From the NCBI GenBank assembly GCA_030390025.1, contig CM059432.1, positions 132,928,001-132,992,000 on the forward strand: a stretch of DNA of 64,000 bases, in the 5' to 3' direction. Below are positions 5,440 to 60,811 of the stretch, piece after piece (position 1 is the first letter of the stretch; each line of letters begins with the position of its first letter). The stretch is from Squalus acanthias. Taxonomy: Eukaryota. The position numbers were made by a program, and so were the translations under genes. The notes under the pieces are model-generated. The model did no database searches, was not told the origin of the DNA, and worked only from the letters and a program-made list of their open reading frames with translations.

Positions 5440-6735
5440 ATTAATATGGGATAGATTCAGAACAGATCTAGCTGCTCAAAACTGGGCATCCATGAGGCGC
5501 CGTGGGCCATCAGCAGCAGCAGAATTGTATTCCACCACAATCTGTAACCTCATGGCCCGGCATATCCCTCACTCTACCATCACCACCAAGCCAGGGGACC
5601 AACCCTGGTTCAACAACGAGTGTAGAAGAGCATGCCAGGAGCAGCACCAGGCGTACCTAAAAATGAGGTGCCAACCTGGGGAAGCTGCAACATGCATGCT
5701 AAAAAGCGGAAGCAGCATGCTATAGACAGGGCTAAACGATCTCACAATCAACGGATCAGATCAAAGCTCTGCAGTCCTGCCACATCCAGTCGTGAATGGT
5801 GGTGGACCATTAAACAACTAACGGGAGGAGGAGGCTCCAAGAATATCCCCATCCTCAATGATGCAAAAGACAAGGCTGAAGCGTTTGCAACCAACTTCAG
5901 CCAGAAGTGCCGAGTGGATGATCCATATCGGCCTACTCCTGAGGTCCCCACCATCACAGAAGCCATTCTTCAGCCAATTCGATTCACTCCACGTGATATG
6001 GGCCCCGACAACATCCCGGCTATCGTGCTGAAGACTTGTGCTCCAGAACTAGCCGCGCCTCTAGCCAAGCTGTTCCAGTACAGCTACAACACTGGCATCT
6101 ATCCGACAATGTGGAAAACCGCCCAGGTATGTCCTGTCCACAAAAAGCAGGACAAATCCAACTCGGCCAATTACCGCCCCATCAGTCTACTCTCAATCAT
6201 CAGCAAAGTGATGGAAGGGTCATCGACAGTGCTATCAAGCAGCATTTACTCACCAATAACCTGCTCACTGATGCCCAGTTTGGGTTCCGCCAAGACCACT
6301 CTGCTCCCGACCTCATTACAGCCTTGGTCCAAACATGGACAATGGAGCTGAATTCCAGAGGTGAGGTGAGAGTGACTGCCCTTGATATCAAGGCAGCATT
6401 TGACCGAGTGTGGCATCAAGGAGCCCTAGTAAAACTGAAGTCAATGGGAATCAGGGGGAAAACGCTCCACTGGCTGGAGTCATACCTAGCACAAAGGAAG
6501 ATGGTTGTGGTGGTTGAAGGTCAATCATCACAGCCCCAGGACATCGCTGCAGGAGTTCCTCAGGGCAGTGTCCTAGGCCCAACCATCTTCAGCTGCTTCA
6601 TCAATCACCTTCCCTCCAACATAAGGTCAGAAATGGGGATGTTCGCTGATGACTGCACAGTGTTCAGGCTTGGGCTGATAAGTGGCAGGTAACATTCGCT
6701 CCACAGAAGTACCAGGCAATGACTATCTCCAACAA

Positions 6736-6938
6736 TGATGTAGAGATGCCAGTGTTGGACTGGGGTGGACAAATGTGAGAAGTCGCACAACACCAGGTTA
6801 TAGTCCAACAGTTTTATTTGAAATCACAAGCTTTCGGAGCGCTGCTCCTTCACCTGACGAAGGAGCAGCGCTCCGAAAGCTTGTGATTTCAAATAAAACT
6901 GTTGGACTATAACCTGGTGTTGTGCGACTTCTCGCATT
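6736..6938. mobile_element. Fold-back Penelope-type terminal-repeat insertion inside the LINE
   Basis: 81-bp inverted arms (6771-6851, 6859-6939; 1 mismatch); 12-bp TSD TATCTCCAACAA; empty site visible in the copy at 46271-46295. Confidence 0.85.
6850..6886 (+). ncRNA. Minimal type I hammerhead ribozyme motif
   Basis: TCAC-CTGACGA-A-GGAGC-AGC-GCTCC-GAAA-GC-TT-GTGA: conserved core, stem II, palindromic stem III and stem I TCAC/GTGA. Confidence 0.75.
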
Positions 6939-8071
6939 TATCTCCAACAAGCGAGAGTCTAACCACCTCCCCTTGACATTCAATAGCATTACCATCGTCG
7001 AATCCCCCACTATCAACATCCTGGGGGTCACCATTAACCAGAAACTTAACTTAACTGGACCAGCAACAAGAGCATGTCAGAGGCTAGGTTTTCTGCGGCG
7101 AGTGTCTCACCTCCTGACTCCCCAAAGCCTTTCCACCATCTACAAGGCACAAGTAAGGAGTGTGATGGAATACTCTCCACTTGCCTGGATGAGTGCAGCT
7201 CCAACAACACTCAAGAAGCTCGACACCATCCAGGACAAAGCAGCCCGCTTGATTGGCACCCCATCCACCACCTTAAACATTCACTCCCTCCACCACCGGC
7301 GTACCGTGGCTGCAGTGTGTACCATCTACAAGATGCACTGCAGCAACTCACCAAGGCTTCTTCGGCAGCACCTCCCAAACCCGTGACCTCTTCCACCTAG
7401 AAGGACAAGGGCAGCAGGCGCATGGGAACACCACCACCTCCATGTTCCCCTCCAAGTCACACACCATCTGACTTAGAAGTATATCGCCAATCATTCATCG
7501 TCGCTGGGTCAAAATCCTGGAACTCCCTACCTATGAGCACTGTGGGAGTACCATCACCACACGGACTGCAGCGGTTCAAGAAGGCGGCTCACCACCACCT
7601 TCTCAAGGGCGACTAGGGATGGGCAATAAATACTGGCCTTGCCAGCGACGCCCAGATCCCATAAACAAATTAAAAAAAATAATTACCCATTAGCTTGTTA
7701 ATTCACTCCACTCAGTAGATCCTCCAGTAATCTCATCAGCATTTATTCCTTAAATGAGAATCTTCAAAATGTTACGATAATGTGCACAGCATTATCGCTC
7801 ACTCATAACCTGTTTAAAAAACTAGGACGTTGATCTTTTTTTTACAGTAGCTGTGAACCTGTTATAAATTTAGGTCAAACTTAAAATGTATTAAAACGTA
7901 GCATCATCCAAAAGACTTGTTTGAGAATGGTGATTCCAGGTACAAACTATTTCATCCAGACACTGCGCAGGATATGATGGTTCCTGTGCTGTTGGCACAT
8001 GAGGGGAGATGTTTGTTTGTTTGTCTGGAGTACAGCTGGCTGGGTTTGAATAGCGGAAATAAATAGTTTCT

Positions 8072-8372
8072 TTCATTCACAGGATGTGGGCATCGCTGGC
8101 AAGGCCAGCATTTATTGTCCATCCCTAATCGCCCTCGAGAAGGTGGTGGTGAGCCGCCTTCTTGAACCGCTGTAGTTCGTGTGGTGAAGGTACTCCCACA
8201 GTGCTGTTAGGGAGGGAGTTGCAGGATTTCGACCTGGCGACGATGAAGGAACGGCAATATACTTCCAAGTCAGGATGGTGCGTGACTTGGAGGGGAACTT
8301 GGAGGTGGTGGTGTTCCCATGCGCCTCCTGCCCTTTTCCTTCTAGGTGGCAGAGGTCGCTGGTTTGGGAGGT
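8072..8372 (-). mobile_element. CR1-group LINE family 2, 3' fragment
   Basis: Reverse complement of 7370-7670. Confidence 0.9.
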
Positions 8373-11981: not shown

Positions 11982-12075
11982 AAAGAATATAAATAAGAAA
12001 GACCACGGTGCATTCCAAACCAGAATCCCATAGTTTGAGAATGAAAGGGCAGAAGGACCAGCAGTGAGAATTAAG

Positions 12076-12968
12076 AACAGAAAATTCTGGAAATACTCGG
12101 CTGGTCAGCGTCTGGAAAAGAAACGCAGGCCAACATTTCGGGTGGGTTCTGATGAAAGAAAGCCTGTATTTTCTGATCCCTACGGGTGTGTACATTGCTG
12201 TGTACACACCCGTAGGGACATCGGAAATGTTGGTCTCAGGCATGCGAAGCGCATGCGCTGAAAACCGACATTTTCGATCGGTCAAGAATCCTCTTGACAG
12301 ATCGGGACGCCTGCCCTGAAGAAGGGCCTCTGCGGGCAGATAGTTCCGCTTTCTGCAGAACCTCCGCCTGCTGAAAACCCTTAGAATTCTTTCGCCTGGT
12401 AAAAGCAGGCATAAGGCCTGCTTTTACCAGCATAAGAGTTTAAAAAAGTTTTTTTAAAAATTTCACTCATTTATAATTTATAAAATCTTTTAAAAAAGTA
12501 AGTTTATTTTTAGCCCTGTAAAAAACTTTAATTATTTTTTCCCAAAAATTAAATTTTTGTTTAAAATATTTAATTTAATGTAATTTTAACTCATTTTGAA
12601 AACGTGATGGTGTTTTAAGAATGTATTTAATGTTTTGATGTGTTTTTGGGGTGATCTCCATTCATATATTGACAGGTCTATCTGTCAAAAGTATGAAGGA
12701 AGATTCCTTCTCCTATTGGCTCCCCATGGCCCACGTGATCCCAGGGACGCTTGCGAACCGCCTGAGCCCCTGGGATACGTGGGCCCTGCGCATTTCAACT
12801 GGGGAGAGGCCCAGGAGCGGAAGTGACCGGACCTCGGGAGCCCTCAGGCAAGGGCGTAGATTTTTTCCCGATAGAGGAGGCATCCGCACGCAGGAAGCCT
12901 CCTATCGGAAATTACAGGCCCAGTATAAAATATTAACCTGTCTTTCTCTTTCAGATGCTGACTGACAT
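12076..12968. mobile_element. Decayed Penelope fold-back terminal repeat split by a family C MITE
   Basis: AACAGAAAATTCTGGAAATACTC...GGTTCTGATGA on the left and AAAATATTAACCTGTCTTTCTC...CAGATGCTG on the right match the terminal repeat at 36990-37090 and 21134-21313. Confidence 0.65.
12161..12920. mobile_element. Harbinger-type MITE, family C
   Basis: Full-length inverted homolog of 3907-4663; TIRs partly decayed. Confidence 0.9.
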
Positions 12969-20854: not shown

Positions 20855-21800
20855 CATAGAAACATACAGCACAGAAGGAGGCCATTCAGCCCATCGTGTC
20901 TGTGCCAGCACTTTGAAAGAGCTATCCAATTAGTCCCACTCCCCTGCTCTTTCCACATAGTCCTACAAATTTCTCCTTTTCAAGTATGTATCCAGTTCCC
21001 TTTTGAAAATTACTATTGGTTCTGCTTCTACCATCCCTTCAGGAAGTGCATGCCAGATCATTATAACTCGCCGCGTAAAAACATTTCTCCTCAATTACCC
21101 CATGGGTTGTTGCTTCAATTATCTTAAACCTTTATACAAAAAGAAAATACTGCAGATGCTGGAAATCTGAAATAAAAACAGAAAATGCTGGAGATACTCA
21201 GCAGGTCAGGCAGCATCTGTGAAGAAAGAAACAGAGTTAACGTTTCAGGTCATCGTGTTTCTCTCTTCACAGATGCTGCCTGACCTGCTGAGTATCTCCA
21301 GCATTTTCTGTTTTTATCTTAAACCTTTGTCCTCTGGCTACTGATCCTCCTGCCAGTGGAAACAGTTTGTCCTATCTACTCTATCAAAACCCCTCATAGT
21401 TTTGAACACATCTGTTAAATCTCCCCTTCTCCTTCTCTGCTCTAAGGAGAACATTCCCAGTTTCTCTAGTCTCTCCGCATAACCGAAGCTCCCTCATCCC
21501 TGGTACCATTCTGGTAAATCTCCTCCGCTCCCTCTCCAAGGCCTTGACATTCTTCCTAAAGTGTGGGGCCCATAATTGGACACAATGCTCCAGCTGAGGC
21601 CTAACCAGTGATTTATGAAGGTTTACCATAACTTCCTTGCTTTTGTGCTCTATGCCTCTATTTATAAAGCCAATAATCCTGAATGCATTTTTAATAGTCT
21701 TATCAACTTGGCCTGCCACCCTCAAATATATGTCCACATACACCCCCAGGTCGCTCAGTTCCTGCACCCCTTTGAAATGGTACCATTTAATTTATATTGC
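20855..21800 (-). mobile_element. CR1 LINE 3' fragment interrupted by a Penelope hairpin
   Basis: ORF 21384..21767 DLGVYV...LVRPQLEHCVQLWAPH; CR1 3' UTR at 20855-20960. Confidence 0.9.
21134..21313. mobile_element. Fold-back Penelope terminal-repeat insertion
   Basis: 62-bp arms 21172-21233 and 21256-21317 (1 mismatch); 15-bp TSD TTATCTTAAACCTTT (21119-21133, 21314-21328); same sequence as the 3' end of the GIY-YIG element (37030-37090). Confidence 0.88.
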
Positions 21801-24794: not shown

Positions 24795-25145
24795 ACAGAA
24801 AAAGTTAGAGATGTAACAGGTTTAAAGCAATTACAGAGGCAGGGAAAGGGGGAGGGGGGAGGGGAGAATGAACAAAAGGGACGGTCTGTGATAGGGTGGA
24901 AGGCAGGAGAGATTAAATGAGCAGCGGAGTTATTACCAGCACCTGCTGTCCAGAAACAATGGGGGCAGAGGCTATGATCTGCAATTGTTGAACTCAATGT
25001 TGAGTCTGGAAAGTTGTAAAGTGCATAATCGAAAGATGAGGTGCTGTTTCTCGAGGTTCCGTTGAGCTTCATTGGAACCATGTAAGAGGCCAAGGGCAGA
25101 GAGGGCAGAGAGGGCAGCGTGGGAGTGGGGCCGAGAATTAATGTG
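24795..25145 (-). mobile_element. Penelope-like element 3' fragment
   Basis: Reverse complement of 36560-36990 (EKQHLIFRL...LNIEFNN and 3' UTR). Confidence 0.85.
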
Positions 25146-27182: not shown

Positions 27183-27937
27183 GGGCTGGATTTTCATAGA
27201 CCCGTGGAGGCGGGTTTGGAGGCGTGTGGGGGGTTAAAATAGCGAAAAGTGGTGGGCGGACCCAATCCCGCCTCCATTCCGCCTCCACGCAATTTTGATG
27301 AAATCGTGTGCGGTGGTCCCGTCTCTGTCCCGCCTCCAAGAGGCGGGAGAGGCCATTAAAGCCCTTAACAAGCCCTAAATTGGCTCTGTAATGCCATTTT
27401 GAAACGTTTTAGCTAGTTTAACCCTTTTCCCACGTGAAGCACGCCTGATCTGAAACACGCCAGTGAAACCTGGCGGGAGCACAAGTGGATAGCTGACTAT
27501 CAGCTGCAGGCCCACTATTACAACGGAGATGTGATGAAGGTAGTAGTAGTAGTATTAGGTCTGAAAGTCGCCTCTGATGCTGCTGCATTGAATGTCTTCA
27601 GAGACTGCCTGGCCTTTGCTGTGAGAGGACCTGGATGCAAAAAAATTCTCTCTCTCTCTCTCTCTCTCTCTCTGAGCTGCTGCTCATTTTGCATCCAGGT
27701 CCTCTCACAGCAAAGGCCAGGCAGTCTCTGACCTGCAATGCAGCAACAATGATGACATCATCAGAGGCGACTTTCAGACTAAAACCACTAATTGGTTCAT
27801 GGGTTCCCACATGCTGGAACTCAATTGCCCAATTAAGTGAAAATTGCATCAATCTCCCACATCCAATTGCAGTCGGGTGGATAACACGAAATGCGGATGA
27901 CACGACCCCAACCCGCCCCAGTATCAAAATCCAGCCC
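27183..27937. mobile_element. Harbinger-type MITE with central palindrome
   Basis: Perfect 12-bp TIR GGGCTGGATTTT / AAAATCCAGCCC, TSD AAG; internal perfect IRs of 45 and 21 bp around a (CT)n tract. Confidence 0.9.
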
Positions 27938-35731: not shown

Positions 35732-35980
35732 GTGCCCTCTTGGCTCGTGTAGCACACTGCAGTGTGCTAATATTGTGAATATACTACCAACCATCTGTCA
35801 AATAAAAAGCACAACCACAAACCAATAGACATCCACTATAAGCCCAATGACTCCCACAGCTACCTGGACTACACTTCCTCCCACCCCGCTTCCTGTAAGG
35901 ACTCTATTCCATTCTCCCAGTTTCTCCATCTCCGCCGCATCTGTTCTGACGATGCCACCTTCCATACTAGTGCTTCCGAT

Positions 35981-36727
35981 ATGTCTTCCTTTTTCCTCAA
36001 CCGAGGATTCCCCTCTACTGTGTTTGACATGGCCCTCGACCGTGTCCGTTCCATTTCCCGCACTTCTGCTCTCACCCCTTCCCCTCCCTCCCAGAACCAC
36101 GATAGGGTTCCCCTTGTTATCACCTTTCACCCCACCAGCCACCACATTCAATGGATCATCCTCCACCATTTCCGCCACCTCCAGCATGATCCCACCACCA
36201 AACACATCTTCCCCTCGCCCCCCCTTTCAGCATTCCGAAGGGATCGCTCCCTCCGTGACACCCAGGTCCACTCCTCTATCACCCCCAACACCCCTTCCCC
36301 TTCGCCCGGCACCTTACCGTGCAAGCGCAGGAGACGCAACACCTGTTCTTTTACCTCCTCCCTTCCCACTGTCCAGGGTCCCAAACACTCCTTCCAGGTG
36401 AAACAGCAATTTACTTGTACTTCTTGCAATTTAGTATACTGTATTCGCTGCTCACGATGCGGTCTCCTCTACATTGGGGAGACCGAACGCAGATTGGATG
36501 ACTGCTTTGCAGAACACCTCCGTTCAGTCCGTAAGGGTGACCCCGAGCTTCCGGTCGTCTGTCACTTTAATTCTCCGCACCACTCCCACTCTGATCTCTC
36601 CGTCCTCGGCCTCTTACATGGTTCCAAAGAAGCCCAATGTAAGCTCGAGGAACAGCACCTCATCTTTCGATTAGGCACTTTACAGCCTTCTGGACTCAAC
36701 ATCGAGTTCAACAATTTCAGACTATAA
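35981..36727 (+). pseudogene. Penelope GIY-YIG endonuclease frame (fragment of TE ORF)
   Basis: NLVYCIRCSRCGLLYIGET...EH...HF...EQHLIFRLGTLQPSGLN. Confidence 0.9.
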
Positions 36728-36993
36728 CCTCTGCCCCTATGTTTTCTTTTTTCTCCCACATGGCAGCTGTTGATGATTCTGCCATTGCCATTTACACTTC
36801 ATCTCAAGTCATCTTTTGTTTCTTGACTTGTCCCATTACCATCTCCTTTTGCCTTGCACCATCATCCCTTTTGTCTTTTAATCTCTCCTGCCTTCCAGCC
36901 TATCACAGACCTTCCCTTTTGTTCTTTCCTCCCCTCCCCCCTTTCCCTGCCCCTGCACTTGCTTAAAAATCTGTTACTTCTCCAACTTTTTCC

Positions 36994-37030
36994 AGTTCTG
37001 ACGAAGGGCCATCGACCTGAAACGTTAATT
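36994..37030 (+). ncRNA. Minimal type I hammerhead ribozyme motif in Penelope terminal repeat
   Basis: AGTT-CTGACGA-AGGGCCATCGACCT-GAAA-CG-TT-AATT; the sister copy at 54228-54252 shows the perfect stem II AGGTC/GACCT and the stem I partner AACT. Confidence 0.72.
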
Positions 37031-37150
37031 CTGTTTCTCTCTCCACGATGCTGCCTGACCTGCTAAGTATTTCCAGCATTTTCTGTTGTTGTTATACATT
37101 TCCTATATAAGTTCACCTCTCAGTGGCCTTGTTTCCAGGCTGTAAGGTCC

Positions 37151-45439: not shown

Positions 45440-47160
45440 CCAACAACAACTTGCTCTCTACCCCTCTCTCCTCCTTTAAGATGCTCCTTAAAACCTACCA
45501 TTTTTGACCAAGCTTTTGAACATCTGTCCTAATATCTTCTTATGTGGCTCAGTTTCAAATTTTGTCTGATATCGCTCCTGTGAAGTGCCTTGGGATGTTT
45601 TGCTACATTAAAGAGGCTATATAAATGCGAGTTGTTGTTATAGTGCCTTTAACGTAGTAAAACGTCTCAAAGTGCTTAATAGGAGCGTAATCAGACAAAC
45701 AAAATTGGCACTCAGTCAACAAAGGAAATATTAGGACAGGTGACCAAAGGCTTGATCAAAGAGGTAGGTTTTAAGAGCATCTTAAAGGAGGAGAGAGAGG
45801 TGGAGAGGTTTATGAAGGGAATAAGCTTTGGGCTTAGACAGCTGAAGGCACAACTGTCAATGGTGGCGTGAAGGAAGTTGGAGATGCACAAGAGGCCGGA
45901 ATTGGAGTAATGCAGAGTTCTCTGAGAGTTGTAGGGCTGCAAGAGGTTACAGATATAGGGAGAGCTGAGGCCATGGAGGGATTTGAACTCGAAGATGAGA
46001 ATTTTAAATTCAACGCATTGATGGACTGGGAGCCAATGCAAATCAGCGAGCACAGGGAAGATGGGTGAACGGGACTTGGTGCGTGTTAGGATACGAACAG
46101 CAGAGTTTTGGATGAGCTCAAGTTTATGTATGGCCTACTCCTGATCCTAATTCTTATGTTCTTATGAATGAGGGCTTCAGCAGCAGATGGACTGAGGCAG
46201 GGGCGGAGACGAGCGATATTATGGAGGTGGAAGTAGGTCTTAGTGATGGAGAGGATATGGGGGTCAGTCAATGACTATCTCCAACAAGCGAGAGTCTAAC
46301 CACCTCCCCTTGACATTCAACGGCATTGCCATCGCCGAATCCCCCACCATCAACATCCTGGGGGTCACCATTGACCAGAAACTTAACTGGACCAGCCACA
46401 TAAATACTGTTGCAACAAGAGCAGGTCAGAGGCTGGGTATTCTGCGGCGAGTGTCTCACCTCCTGACTCCCCAAAGCCTTTCCACAAGGCACAAGTAAGG
46501 AGTGTGATGGAATACTCTCCACTTGCCTGGATGAGTGCAGCTCCAACAACACTCAAGAAGCTCGACACCATCCAGGACAAAGCAGCCCGCTTGATTGGCA
46601 CCCCATCCACCACCTTAAACATTCACTCCCTCCACCACCGGCGTACCGTGGCTGCAGTGTGTACCATCTACAAGATGCACTGCAGCAACTCGCCAAGGCT
46701 TCTTTGGCAGCACCTCCCAAACCCGCGACCTCTTCCACCTAGAAGGACAAGGGCAGCAGGCACATGGGAACACCATCACCTCCAAGTTCCCCTCCAAGTC
46801 ACACACCAAACAGACTTAGAAGTATATCATCGATCCTTCACCGTCGCTGGGTCAAAATCCTGGAACTCCCTACCTAACAGCACTGTGGGAGTACCTTCAC
46901 CTCATGGACCGGTTCAAGAAGACGGCTCACCACCACCTTCTCAAGGGCAACTAGGGATGGGCAATAAATGCTGGCTTTGCCAGCGACGGCCACATCCCAG
47001 GAACGAATAAAAAAATAAGTCAGGGTCAAATAAGACGCCGAGGCTGCGAAAAATCTGGTTCCGCCTGAGACGATGGCCAGGGAGGGGGATGGAATCGGTG
47101 ACTAGAGAATGGAGTTTATGGCAGGGGTGAAAGACAATGGCTTCGGTCTTCCTAATGTTT
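45440..47160 (-). mobile_element. L2 LINE fragment hosting several nested insertions
   Basis: ORFs LADLHWLPVHQCVEFKIL and ITKTYFHLHNIARLRPCLS; interrupted by a plus-strand L2 tail (45456-45639), a short CR1 tail (~46128-46165) and a family 2 LINE. Confidence 0.85.
46269..47017 (+). mobile_element. CR1-group LINE family 2, 3' ~750 bp
   Basis: Near-identical to 6720-7680 but without the fold-back insertion. Confidence 0.93.
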
Positions 47161-48115: not shown

Positions 48116-49290
48116 GATCATGAAACATTAGTACAAAGCCACACTCAACCTCATCCTGCTGTGCCTCTCATCACATCCCCTTCACTCTGTCTTTCCTACC
48201 CTACTCCTGCACATCCTTACTCACACCAACTCACCTTAGACCTCCACTCATCCCTCTCTATCTATATTATCACATTCCCATCTCACTAGCCACCCTTCAC
48301 ACTCACCCTCATCCTAGTGCACTCATATGAACTAACAACACACAAGTATTGGCACTTGGGTCTTTTATCCAATGTTCATGTAAAGTTTCTGTTAACGTGG
48401 TGTCAAACATTGAAATCTTTATTTTCAACACTTTGTGTCCTTGGACAGATTTGTGTGCTCCTTTGGAAGCAGCTTAGTGAGTTGCAGTGAATGATGAGAC
48501 ATAACGGTACCCCCCGCAATGGTGATGAGTGTGAAAGGAATGGCTTGGGCTTTGTAGGGATGATTTATGGTGTTGGTGTGGGGTGGTGCCAACCTGGCGC
48601 ATGATGTGGAAGCCAGGGTGTACAGTGTCAAGTGGTGAGGCCATCCTGGCCTCCTGGGCAGCAATGTGCTCAGGTGCTGATGCCCTCTGTCCTGTGCAGC
48701 ATCAGTTGATAGTGGAGAATGTTGGTGTTGTTGTTGGTGCTGCTGGTGTGCCTGGTGCTGCTGGTGTTGGGGCTGATCGTGGTGGGATTCTAAGGACCAA
48801 GGTGAGAGAGTATAAAGGGAACCCATGTTGATGGAATAGATGGCAGGTGAAGTTGAGATGAGAGAAGCGATCTGTCAATGGTGAGAGAGGTTGTTCCAAT
48901 GAGGTGACACTGGATAGAGAGTTTGCTCCAAACACTTGCAACCTGCCTAAAGTTCAATCTGTCTTCCAAATGCAGTAAGCAACAGCTTCCGAGCTTGGAA
49001 AGTGAAGAGCTGTGAGGTGGGAGCGTTTATAGCACATTTCAAGCTGTCAAGTATTCAGCTAATTCAATGGCCATTCAGCTCCTGCATCAGCTTAACAGAT
49101 GTGATCCCCAAGCAGTGAGGACCCCGTGGGTGAGCACGTAAAGTCAAAAGGTAAACTAAAATGTATTCTCAATGATGTCTAAACAAGGTCATAATGCACT
49201 TAATCTTGTCCCCCGCCGCTGCATGTCGGGTCTGCTCAGCGCTGACAGACCCGACATTTGGTAAAGGCACGTGGCGGCGGGTTTACAGCG

Positions 49291-51039
49291 TATAAATATG
49301 TAAAAAGAAAGAGGTTAGTAAAAACAAACGTAGGTCCCCTGCAGTCGGAAACAGGGGAAGTCGTAATGGGGAACAAGGAAATGGCAGATCAATTGAACAA
49401 GTACTTTGGTTCGGTGTTTACTGTGGAGGACACACACAACCTGCCGGAAATAAAAGGGGTCAGAGGATCTGGTAAGAGGGAGGAGCTGAGGGAAATCCTT
49501 ATTAGTCGGGAAAAGGTATTGGGGAAATTGATGGGACTGAAGGCTGAAAAATCCCCGGGGCCTGATGGTCTGCATCCCAGAGTACTTAAGGAGGTGGCCT
49601 TGGAAATAGTGGATGCATTGACGATCATTTTCCAACATTCCTTAGACTCTGGATCAGTTCCGATGGAGTGGAGGGTGGCCAATGTAACCCCTCTTTTTAA
49701 AAAAGGAGGGAGGGAGAAAGCAGGGAATTATAGACCGGTCAGCCTGACATCAGTTGTGGGTAAAATGATGGAAGCAATTATTAAAGATGTCATAACAGAC
49801 CATTTGGAAAGTGGCGACATGATAGGTCCAAGTCAGCATGGATTTGTGAAAGGGAAATCATGCTTGACAAATCTTCTGGAATTTTTTGAGGATGTTTCCA
49901 CTAGGGTGGACAGGGGGGAACCAGTAGATGTGGTGTATTTGGACTTTCAGAAGGCCTTCGACAAGGTTCCACACAAGAGATTGGTGAGCAAAGTTAAAGC
50001 ACATGGGATTGGGGGTAATGTGTTGACGTGGATTGAGAACTGGTTGGCACACAGGAAACAAAGAGTAGGAGTAAATGGGTACTTTTCAGAATGGCAGGCA
50101 GTGACCAGCGGGGTACCGCAGGGTTCGGTGCTGGGACCCCAGCTGTTTACATTATATATTAATGATTTGGACGAAGGGATTAAATGTAATATCTCCAAAT
50201 TTGCGGATGACACTAAATTGGGAGGCAGTGTGAACAATGAGGAGGATGCTAGGAGGCTACAGAGTGACTTGGACAGGTTGGGTGAATGGGCAAATGTATG
50301 GCAGATGAAGTACAATGTGGATAAATGTGAGGTTATCCACTTTGGTGGTAAAAATAGAGAGGCGGACTATTACCTGAATGGTGGCAGATTAGGGAAAGGG
50401 GAGGTGCAACGAGACCTGGGCATCATGGTACATCAGTCATTGAAGGTGGGAATGCAAGTGCAGCAGGCAGTCAAGAAAGCAAACGGAATGATGGCCTTCA
50501 TAGTAAGGGGATTTGAGTACAGGAGTAGGGAGGTGATGCTGCAGTTGTACAGGGCCTTGGTGAGGCCACACCTGGAGTATTGTGCGCAGTTCTGGTCTCC
50601 TAACTTAAGGAAGGACATTCTTGCTATTGAGGGAGTGCAGCGAAGGTTCACTAGATTGATTCCTGGGATGGCCGGACTGACATATCAAGAAAGATTGGGT
50701 CAACTGAACTTGTATCCTCTGGAGTTCAGAAGAATGAGGGGGGATCTTATAGAGACATTTAAAATCCTGACTGGTTTAGACAAATTAGATGCGGGCAGAA
50801 TGTTCCCAATGGTAGGGAAAACTAGAACCAGGGGTCACAGTCTAAGGATTAAGGGGAAGCCATTTAGGACTGAGCTGAGGAGGAACTTCTTCACCCAGAG
50901 AGTGGTGAATCTATGGAATTCTCTTCCACAGAAGGTTGTTGAGGCCAGTTCGCTAAATATATTCAAAAGGGAGTTAGATATAACACTCACAACTAGGGGG
51001 ATCAAGGGGTATGGCGAGAAAGCAGGAATGGGGTACTGA
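49291..51039 (+). CDS. CR1 ORF2 reverse transcriptase frame, intact but lacking the APE endonuclease domain
   Basis: KSPGPDG, NYRPVSLTS, QHGF, YLDFQKAFDKVPH, GVPQGSVLGP, KFADDTK; no stops or frameshifts; the first 11 codons of the called ORF (49258-49290) come from flanking DNA. Confidence 0.85.
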   Translation, partial: YKYVKRKRLVKTNVGPLQSETGEVVMGNKEMADQLNKYFGSVFTVEDTHNLPEIKGVRGSGKREELREILISREKVLGKLMGLKAEKSPGPDGLHPRVLKEVALEIVDALTIIFQHSLDSGSVPMEWRVANVTPLFKKGGREKAGNYRPVSLTSVVGKMMEAIIKDVITDHLESGDMIGPSQHGFVKGKSCLTNLLEFFEDVSTRVDRGEPVDVVYLDFQKAFDKVPHKRLVSKVKAHGIGGNVLTWIENWLAHRKQRVGVNGYFSEWQAVTSGVPQGSVLGPQLFTLYINDLDEGIKCNISKFADDTKLGGSVNNEEDARRLQSDLDRLGEWANVWQMKYNVDKCEVIHFGGKNREADYYLNGGRLGKGEVQRDLGIMVHQSLKVGMQVQQAVKKANGMMAFIVRGFEYRSREVMLQLYRALVRPHLEYCAQFWSPNLRKDILAIEGVQRRFTRLIPGMAGLTYQERLGQLNLYPLEFRRMRGDLIETFKILTGLDKLDAGRMFPMVGKTRTRGHSLRIKGKPFRTELRRNFFTQRVVNLWNSLPQKVVEASSLNIFKRELDITLTTRGIKGYGEKAGMGY

Positions 51040-53984: not shown

Positions 53985-54320
53985 AGCTGGTGCTGGTAAT
54001 GATTCTGCTGTTAACATTTACACCTCCTCTGGGCCCATCTTTTGTTTCTTTACTTGTCCCATTACCACCCCCTTTTGCCTCGCACCATCATCCCTTTTGT
54101 TATTTAATCTCTCCTGCCTTCCACCCTATCACAGCCCTTCCCTTTTGTTCTTTCCTCCCCTACCCCCTTTCCCTGCCTCTGTACTTGCTTAAAACCTGTT
54201 ACATCTGTAACATTTTCCAGTTCAGAAAGGTCATCGACCTGAAACGTTAACTCTGTTTCTCTCTCCACAGATGCTGCCTGACGTGCTGAGTATCTCCAGC
54301 ATTTTCTGTTTTTATTTCTG
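53985..54320 (+). mobile_element. Penelope 3' UTR and terminal repeat fragment (hammerhead core damaged)
   Basis: Homolog of 36763-37090; CTGACGA core reduced to CAGA at ~54223. Confidence 0.88.
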
Positions 54321-59645: not shown

Positions 59646-60137
59646 TGTAAATTGGACAGTAAATCCGAGCACATCACCATGAGCAATAACAAGCTGAAGG
59701 TACCTGCATATTGGTGGTTTTAACCATACTATTGATTCTGTGCTATATCTGATATGTTAAATAAACAGGACAGGCTTAAATAGTATTTAGCCAATTTGAG
59801 ATGAATCTCACCAGAATCTAATTACATGCTATTAATGAGAAAATGTGTAATTTAGCATAACTGGGATAGTTTGATACGAGATGAAGCCGAATGCTAAGGT
59901 GCACTTTGGTGTTGAAATCCACAAGAAATACACCTTGAATGCAGAATTAAACGAGTTCTCAAGTAATTCAAAATCTCAGTTCATTCCAATTTGGATTTTT
60001 TTTAAACCATCAAGGTGGAGAGTTGAATACTTTCTATTTTGGATATTGCCTGTCAGCATCAAGCACTTCTAGGTCAGGCAGAGGATGGTTAGGTATTTGA
60101 TAGGATATGTAAAATATCATGGCATGAGATACTTCCT

Positions 60138-60649
60138 AGACACTCGGATCAGCCAGATACTGGGATCAGCCTGACGCTGGGATCAGCCAGATACTAGGAT
60201 CAGCCAGATACTAGGATCAGCCAGATACTAGGATTAGCCAGGCGCTGGGATCAGCCAGACGCTGGGATCAGCCAGACGCTGGGATCAGCCAGACGCTGGG
60301 ATCAGCCAGACGCTGGGATCAGCCAGGCGCTGGGATCAGTCAGACGTTGGGATCAGTCAGACGCTGGGATCAGCCAGGCGCTGGGATCAGTCAGACGCTG
60401 GGATCAGCCAGACACTGGGATCAGCCAGACGCTGGGATCAGCCAGATGCTGGGATCAGCCAGGCACTGGGATCAGCCAGACACTGGGATCAGCCAGGTGC
60501 TGGGATCAGCCAGACGCTGGGATCAGCCAGACACTGGGATCAGCCAGACACTGGGATCAGTCAGGTGCTGGGATCAGCCAGACGCTGGGATCAACCAGAC
60601 ACTGGGATCAGCCAGACACTGGGATCAGCCAGACACTGGGATCAGCCAG
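60138..60649. repeat. 17-bp minisatellite, ~30 copies
   Basis: Unit CTGGGATCAGCCAGAC(G/A) repeated head-to-tail with variant units. Confidence 0.97.
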
Positions 60650-60811
60650 CCAGATGGACTGCAATGATCTTTTTGGTTCTCCATTCCTCTGATGCAGAGT
60701 AAAAGCACCTTTGCTTCGCCCCCAGCAAAGTGCCTCCTGTATCACGGTGGCAATTTTCCATTTTCCTTCGCAGCTATGCCGTGACATCTCTCGGTGAGAT
60801 TCATGCTGAAT

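Follow-up and report, generated by a model that had tools for sequence, protein, structure and literature searches.

Anatomy of the insertion and its target site

An insertion of 203 bp occupies positions 6736–6938 of the window, the whole 64-kb stretch of DNA analysed here, and interrupts a broken host LINE between two copies of TATCTCCAACAA (6724–6735 and 6939–6950). The longest identical flank is 12 bp and, as the first and last bases of the TSD are also compatible with the element, the true TSD measures 10–12 bp. The insertion folds back on itself through two 80-bp arms (6772–6851 and 6859–6938) that enclose a 7-nt loop and carry a single mismatch (6776/6934), with the inner 75 bp identical and the mismatch located 5 bases from the outer end. 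The resulting hairpin displays a fold z-score of −25.5 and none of 200 shuffles folds equally well. An unpaired, one-sided extension of 36 nt, the tail, which had not been singled out originally, is borne by the left arm, leaving one insertion end with a tail and the other without. The main features are the following:

5626–7680, plus strand: broken host LINE interrupted by the insertion, with RVT_1 in 5997–6689
6724–6735, no strand: left TSD (10–12 bp; last base also fits the element), from flank comparison
6736–6771, minus strand: 36-nt one-sided tail with its outer 3′ end at 6736, from arm mapping and loose-end clusters
6749–6763, within the tail: stem of 5 bp capped by an AC-rich loop that reads CCAAC in the sense of the element
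6772–6851, minus strand: left arm, a 5′-truncated repeat copy in which the CUGANGA core is missing while the cleavage site, stem II and GAAA remain
6848–6862, no strand: junction of CTTC, 7-nt loop and GAAG, with loose ends behind 6851/6852 in 4/4 runs
6850–6886, plus strand: minimal type I hammerhead motif with predicted cleavage after U6882 (CUU triplet), from a descriptor match
6859–6938, plus strand: right arm, a sense repeat copy ending at the inner (tail-less) 3′ end
6939–6950, no strand: right TSD, from flank comparison
21134–21313, no strand: fold-back of a second family between TSD copies of at most 15 bp, 21119–21133 and 21314–21328
46276–46287, plus strand: the target 12-mer, present once within a paralog of the LINE (empty site)

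In the sense of the element, the two halves of the insertion face outward (head-to-head). The minus-strand copy begins just past the core and ends with the tail at 6736, while the plus-strand copy extends from stem I to 6938 and bears no tail. The insertion terminates on either side in a 3′ end of the element, at the outer tail boundary in one case and at the inner in the other, and a TSD flanks this pair of copies. All alleles common in the family are shared by the two arms, whose single difference lies near the outer end, and the sense repeat contains no ATG. No second copy of the repeat was found elsewhere in the 64-kb window, where the best other match is 17 nt. The original prediction of a 203-bp insertion with a 12-bp TSD is borne out by these boundaries. 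The near-perfect palindrome described with it also stands, although its length of 81 bp had counted the first TSD base. Similarly, the empty site is visible where the 12-mer occurs once, but it belongs to a paralog of the host LINE and is not the empty allele of this locus.

The hammerhead motif and its predicted folding

Stem I of the hammerhead motif is formed by TCAC and GTGA (6850–6853 and 6883–6886), with the CTGACGA core at 6854–6860 followed by an extra A, stem II (GGAGC/GCTCC), GAAA, GC and TT; a G10.1–C11.1 pair and a palindromic 15.2–16.2 are also present. A strict descriptor matches once in the 64-kb window and never in 300 dinucleotide shuffles, which confirms the complete minimal hammerhead motif that had been proposed, although the descriptor is incomplete and misses the motif of the second family at ~36994–37030, whose stem II is different. 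The core is found exclusively in the plus copy, CTGANGA being absent from the minus strand of the insertion. Rfam hammerhead models gave no match at the motif even at E ≤ 10, and nothing in the whole window attains an Rfam gathering score. A microRNA identity was rejected, the Rfam candidates being generic hairpin models far below their cut-offs. CUU is a poor hammerhead cleavage triplet. Both repeat copies continue through the predicted cleavage site, and the template RNA was thus uncut at this position.

The predicted energies are −162.7 kcal/mol for the hairpin and −115.9 kcal/mol for the ribozyme-compatible fold, a gap of about 47 kcal/mol. In the plus-strand transcript prefixes tested the hairpin probability is at least 0.999 once position 6866 has been made, and the probability of stem II is below 1e-14 in all of them. 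Taken alone, the 37-nt motif is predicted to form stems I and II, at −10.8 kcal/mol. These predictions support the earlier view that the two folds are mutually exclusive. The RNA switch that had been built on this view did not survive, and it is highly improbable that the RNA alternates functionally between the hairpin and an active hammerhead or was adopted by the host as a regulator. Such a switch would draw on the mutual exclusion and on the ability of the isolated motif to fold alone, but it is opposed by the large energy gap, by an antisense arm that is transcribed before the ribozyme and by a hairpin that closes as soon as the core is made. In addition, a minimal hammerhead depends on another copy in the same sense, and none is present in the insertion; single minimal hammerheads remained uncleaved in vitro and dimers cleaved weakly, according to the available text of PMC4209133. 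A role as host regulator is further disfavoured by the youth of the insertion and its position within a broken LINE, and by the 138 non-repeat ORFs of at least 70 aa, none of which matches a host-gene Pfam family above cut-off (a survey that misses short exons). The hammerhead motif travels as a passenger with the repeat and is predicted to be inactive in this insertion, where no partner in the same sense exists and a duplex of 80 bp encloses it.

Copies of the repeat in public sequencing runs

Of 24 public runs listed, 14, from five coded organisms, contain at least half of the sampled words, and 5 of these 14 may derive from the source of this DNA. Contig mapping on 6700–6875 covered four runs (X1, X2, X10 and X13), leaving out X15–X24, whose word shares are small. 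X1 is possibly the source DNA itself and so is not independent; about 55% of it was covered. The four runs, which represent three organisms, hold 10,244 (from the ~55% of X1), 5,109, 22,883 and 2,270 matching contigs. A copy number derived from summed depth was rejected, as summed depth is no copy number.

Among the rows listed (the best 24 of 448), loose ends with unrelated flanks cluster at 6735, with 77, 39 and 13 records in X1, X2 and X10, and at 6774–6776, with 18 in X2 and 40 in X1. These clusters mark the two boundaries of the tail, the inner one lying within 2–4 bases of the stop of the right arm. The consensus of a further cluster, at 6766, resembles a variant tail, and this cluster was therefore not taken for an additional 3′ end. 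A fixed 5′ end at 6848–6853 was also rejected, as the reference sense copy itself only starts there. The loose ends behind 6851/6852, seen in all four runs, give the natural upstream sequence of the family, and the 4-nt inverted repeat CTTC/GAAG is the family's own sequence upstream of the core; it is therefore a built-in microhomology. Past the tail the loose-end consensus would read as ATG in three of the four runs, with an agreement of 0.39–0.47.

Core position 7, which is a free position, varies between C, G and T among copies, with the remaining core constant. In X13 the loose-end consensus displays an altered loop II and an A-U to G-U change in stem II. All 17 listed variants fall in 6773–6820 and none in the hammerhead part (Fisher p ~6e-5); the tail is likewise devoid of listed variants, as is 6821–6851 (0/17), and edge effects may account for this. 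Positions 6777 and 6785 carry near-fixed differences between organisms, with G in A and A in 77–96% of depth in B and E, which indicates lineage-specific subfamilies that were still amplifying after the species split.

Joints were also recovered. Among the best 15 of 41, 13 are hairpins in which a shorter left arm is fused to the start of the hammerhead copy, and these use 12 different breakpoints between 6768 and 6811. With sides of 18–26 letters at 85% likeness each joint is individually weak, and taken together they show that the fold-back junctions are scattered, with at least 12 different inner junctions. In X1 only, at 6731–6776, two joints link host-LINE sequence, at the site of this insertion, with the repeat end that bears no tail. 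Each is represented by 2 contigs, at depths of 600 and 174 against ~19–61 for the listed X1 pieces, and shares 3–4 letters; both are absent from the other three runs. They point either to a site targeted more than once with the help of microhomology or to amplification of one locus. Exact searches with two motifs of the repeat retrieved 0 matches from contigs of metagenomes, prokaryotic genomes and viruses, collections not intended for vertebrate DNA.

A second Penelope family and other features of the window

A 5′-truncated Penelope-like element lies at 35771–37092, where the end of a 318-aa ORF is followed by a terminal repeat. The ORF (35771–36724) itself has no Pfam match, while among 11 longer relatives, one of them named from bamboo shark, PF00078 (RVT_1) is found in 9 and PF01541 (GIY-YIG) in 4. 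The terminal repeat carries its own hammerhead motif at ~36994–37030, with stems that differ from those of the 203-bp insertion. Further pieces of this family lie at 24798–25145, 53992–54316 and 12073–12108. The best match between the 203-bp insertion and the other Penelope repeat (36720–37130) is 11 nt, a length attained by 13/300 and 16/300 shuffles, and the proposal that they are separate families was therefore upheld.

The second family also forms a hairpin at 21134–21313. Its arms (21172–21233 and 21256–21317) are separated by a 22-nt spacer that belongs to the tailed arm, and a tail of ~38 nt extends one arm. CTGANGA is absent from both strands of this fold-back. As the second family makes the same TSD-flanked, tailed hairpin without a core, the fold-back arises from the insertion process and not from the ribozyme.

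Other repeats were observed in the window. Older nested inverted arms, 75–90% complementary, extend over 45454–45807 at the 3′ end of a LINE-like ORF (45712–46134, minus strand), and are the fold-back of a different element. Another hairpin, at 27559–27779, combines a perfect arm pair of 45 nt with an outer pair of 24 nt. A tandem array with 17-bp spacing and several open frames occupies 60036–60749. An open reverse-transcriptase-like frame of 597 aa, presumably of a CR1-type LINE, lies on the minus strand at 49246–51039, with related fragments elsewhere in the window. The 3′ end of the host LINE and an opposite-orientation copy (8067–8372) form inverted repeats 0.4–0.8 kb apart at 7370–8372, which could possibly give dsRNA if transcribed.

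Origin of the insertion

The insertion is best explained as two head-to-head, 5′-truncated 3′ ends of a repeat of high copy number that is likely a Penelope-like element (PLE), placed there by a single and likely dead-on-arrival event (probability about 0.85). It combines an inverted 5′-truncated copy, a 36-nt tail, element 3′ ends at both boundaries and a hammerhead within the repeat. Membership of the repeat among PLE ends is likely from structure and family behaviour, and the TSD-arm-arm-tail anatomy supports the original identification of a Penelope-type terminal repeat present as an inverted truncated copy. In PLEs an inverted 5′-truncated copy together with a tail of 30–40 bp on one end is typical, in the available text of PMC8557442. 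The PAc element cleaves and extends both strands, with reverse transcription from two sites that bound the tail; it is a predicted dimer and inserts without hammerhead cleavage (PMC11167929, available portion).

By this mechanism, a PLE protein would have nicked both target strands 10–12 bp apart, and each 3′-OH would have primed a short cDNA, one from each reverse-transcription start site. Both cDNAs would then have halted near the hammerhead and joined via the CTTC/GAAG microhomology of the family. Of the last four bases of the right primer, 3 match the template (the arms extend to 6768/6942), against one for the left primer. A two-primer join has an analogy in the twin priming known for L1. 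Literature searches on PLE twin priming, template switching and palindromic pLTR hairpins returned no paper on the joining step among the titles listed.

A variant within the PLE-insertion reading is that a single cDNA folded back (snap-back) at the CTTC/GAAG stem, served as its own template and was then joined to a short tail-bearing cDNA from the other nick. The identity of the inner arms up to the outermost bases would suit self-copying, and the loop is part of the arm without a tail, which is the polarity that snap-back requires; the family alleles shared by both arms are as compatible with it as with two independent cDNAs. The tail, however, is not copyable from the first cDNA, such that a second primed cDNA would still be required, and neither the 13 shorter-arm joints (among the best 15 of 41) nor the second-family hairpin, whose spacer lies on the tailed arm, has such a fixed stem. 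Snap-back is therefore the less probable of the routes, although a sizeable minority share of the PLE-insertion reading falls to it. A self-standing non-autonomous mini-retroelement of retrozyme or MITE type, in which the whole hairpin is copied, is far less plausible still. In its favour, runs of organisms A and B contain every one of the 14 words sampled from the 203-mer, and a 70-nt contig from X10, probably an RNA run, crosses a like junction, with only 14 letters beyond it. The at least 12 different inner junctions among the joints listed speak against such propagation, the junction depth in X1 is ~1% of the peak (partly an edge effect), no piece among those listed spans the stretch, and the built-in microhomology accounts for a recurrent junction. 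These varied junctions and the core-less hairpin of the second family also tell against the self-mobile ribozyme unit envisaged at the outset, which would be expected as one amplified form. The insertion contains one core in an inverted arrangement and not at least two head-to-tail units with complete hammerheads, whereas animal retrozymes are defined by tandem units in the available text of bioRxiv 10.64898/2026.07.22.740005. A MITE or another DNA transposon is opposed by ends that are not terminal inverted repeats, one of them bearing the 36-nt tail, and by the variable junctions.

Possible double-stranded RNA and editing

If transcribed, the locus would give a near-perfect hairpin, a predicted substrate of ADAR or Dicer. 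The run X10, on the guess that it represents RNA, was compared with the DNA of X1; both belong to organism A, but they are different samples and the DNA is not matched to the RNA. A>G/T>C rows are more than 2-fold commoner in X10 than in X1 in 6/8 cases, versus 0/9 for other rows (Fisher p ~0.002). Four A>G/T>C sites pass 2% in X10 and not in X1, being 6–69 times commoner in the former: 6798 (10.0% versus 0.21%), 6800 (5.3% versus 0.66%), 6801 (5.9% versus 0.98%, with 4.1% in X13, a run of unknown kind) and 6816 (9.2% versus 0.13%; 65 versus 7 contigs). A 5′ G is absent at all four sites, and the UAG context at 6802 is not among the listed X10 variants. Expressed alleles can mimic editing and the signal in X10 is family-wide and not that of this locus, such that these variants are a weak hint of dsRNA editing of the family RNA. 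At this family level the suggested dsRNA source receives some support.

Penelope is heavily edited in a lizard (PMC5625713) and in X. tropicalis (PMC10636886), and in Drosophila siRNAs arise from inverted Penelope copies (PMC3681739), as reported in the available parts of these papers. Tentatively, PLE proteins that prime both strands and join the products head-to-head might seed thousands of self-contained perfect hairpins in sharks, which would constitute a main ADAR substrate and dsRNA source and be the equivalent there of inverted Alu pairs; this proposal is more doubtful than probable. If true, a shark hairpin class would also explain Penelope as the stand-out edited retroelement in lizard and frog. 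The 203-bp locus is itself of small importance, being one among very many leftover insertions. The class of minimal hairpins retains, within ~200 bases, a record of the two priming sites, the two nicks and the joint. Genome-wide counts of these hairpins could test how PLEs form inverted ends, a step called undefined in the literature available in part, and a major part of the edited dsRNA in sharks may come from minimal PLE hairpins.

Comparison with known systems

The insertion is of an already published kind of PLE insertion, consisting of an inverted truncated copy plus a tail. The complex insertions of endonuclease-positive PLEs (Craig et al. 2021, PMC8557442) display, in the text available, the same inverted truncated copy, one-sided tail and hammerhead in the repeat. 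In contrast to these, both copies are here cut to 80–116 nt and the whole insertion is one hairpin without an ORF. PAc, a Poseidon-type PLE of Anolis (Frangieh et al. 2024, PMC11167929), similarly presents two 3′-end clusters bounding the tail, an AC-rich stem-loop in the tail and insertion that passes through the uncleaved hammerhead site, in the portion of that paper available. The PAc ORF starts inside the hammerhead, while here the start would be at the end of the tail, which is a weak hint only.

The metazoan PLE hammerheads described in the accessible part of Cervera and De la Pena (2014, PMC4209133) possess the same 4-bp stem I, G10.1–C11.1 pair and palindromic 15.2–16.2, as well as the additional nucleotide between 9 and 10.1. 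Stem II has a length of 5 bp here and 7–8 bp in Schistosoma, and one of the two copies here is core-less. Pairs of hammerheads on opposite strands, 100–700 bp apart, are already mentioned there for metazoan PLEs; no shark example was found in that text. The hyper-edited repeats of lizard Penelope and palindromic frog Harbinger (PMC5625713), and of X. tropicalis Penelope (PMC10636886), are likewise a self-folding source of dsRNA, and the available text of these papers and of PMC3681739 holds no tie of Penelope editing to a fold-back structure or to sharks. Non-LTR retrozymes (bioRxiv 10.64898/2026.07.22.740005, text available in part) are, as the insertion is, non-coding, derived from PLE terminal repeats and equipped with a type I hammerhead. 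They differ in being arranged head-to-tail with at least two complete motifs, whereas the insertion is head-to-head and carries one.
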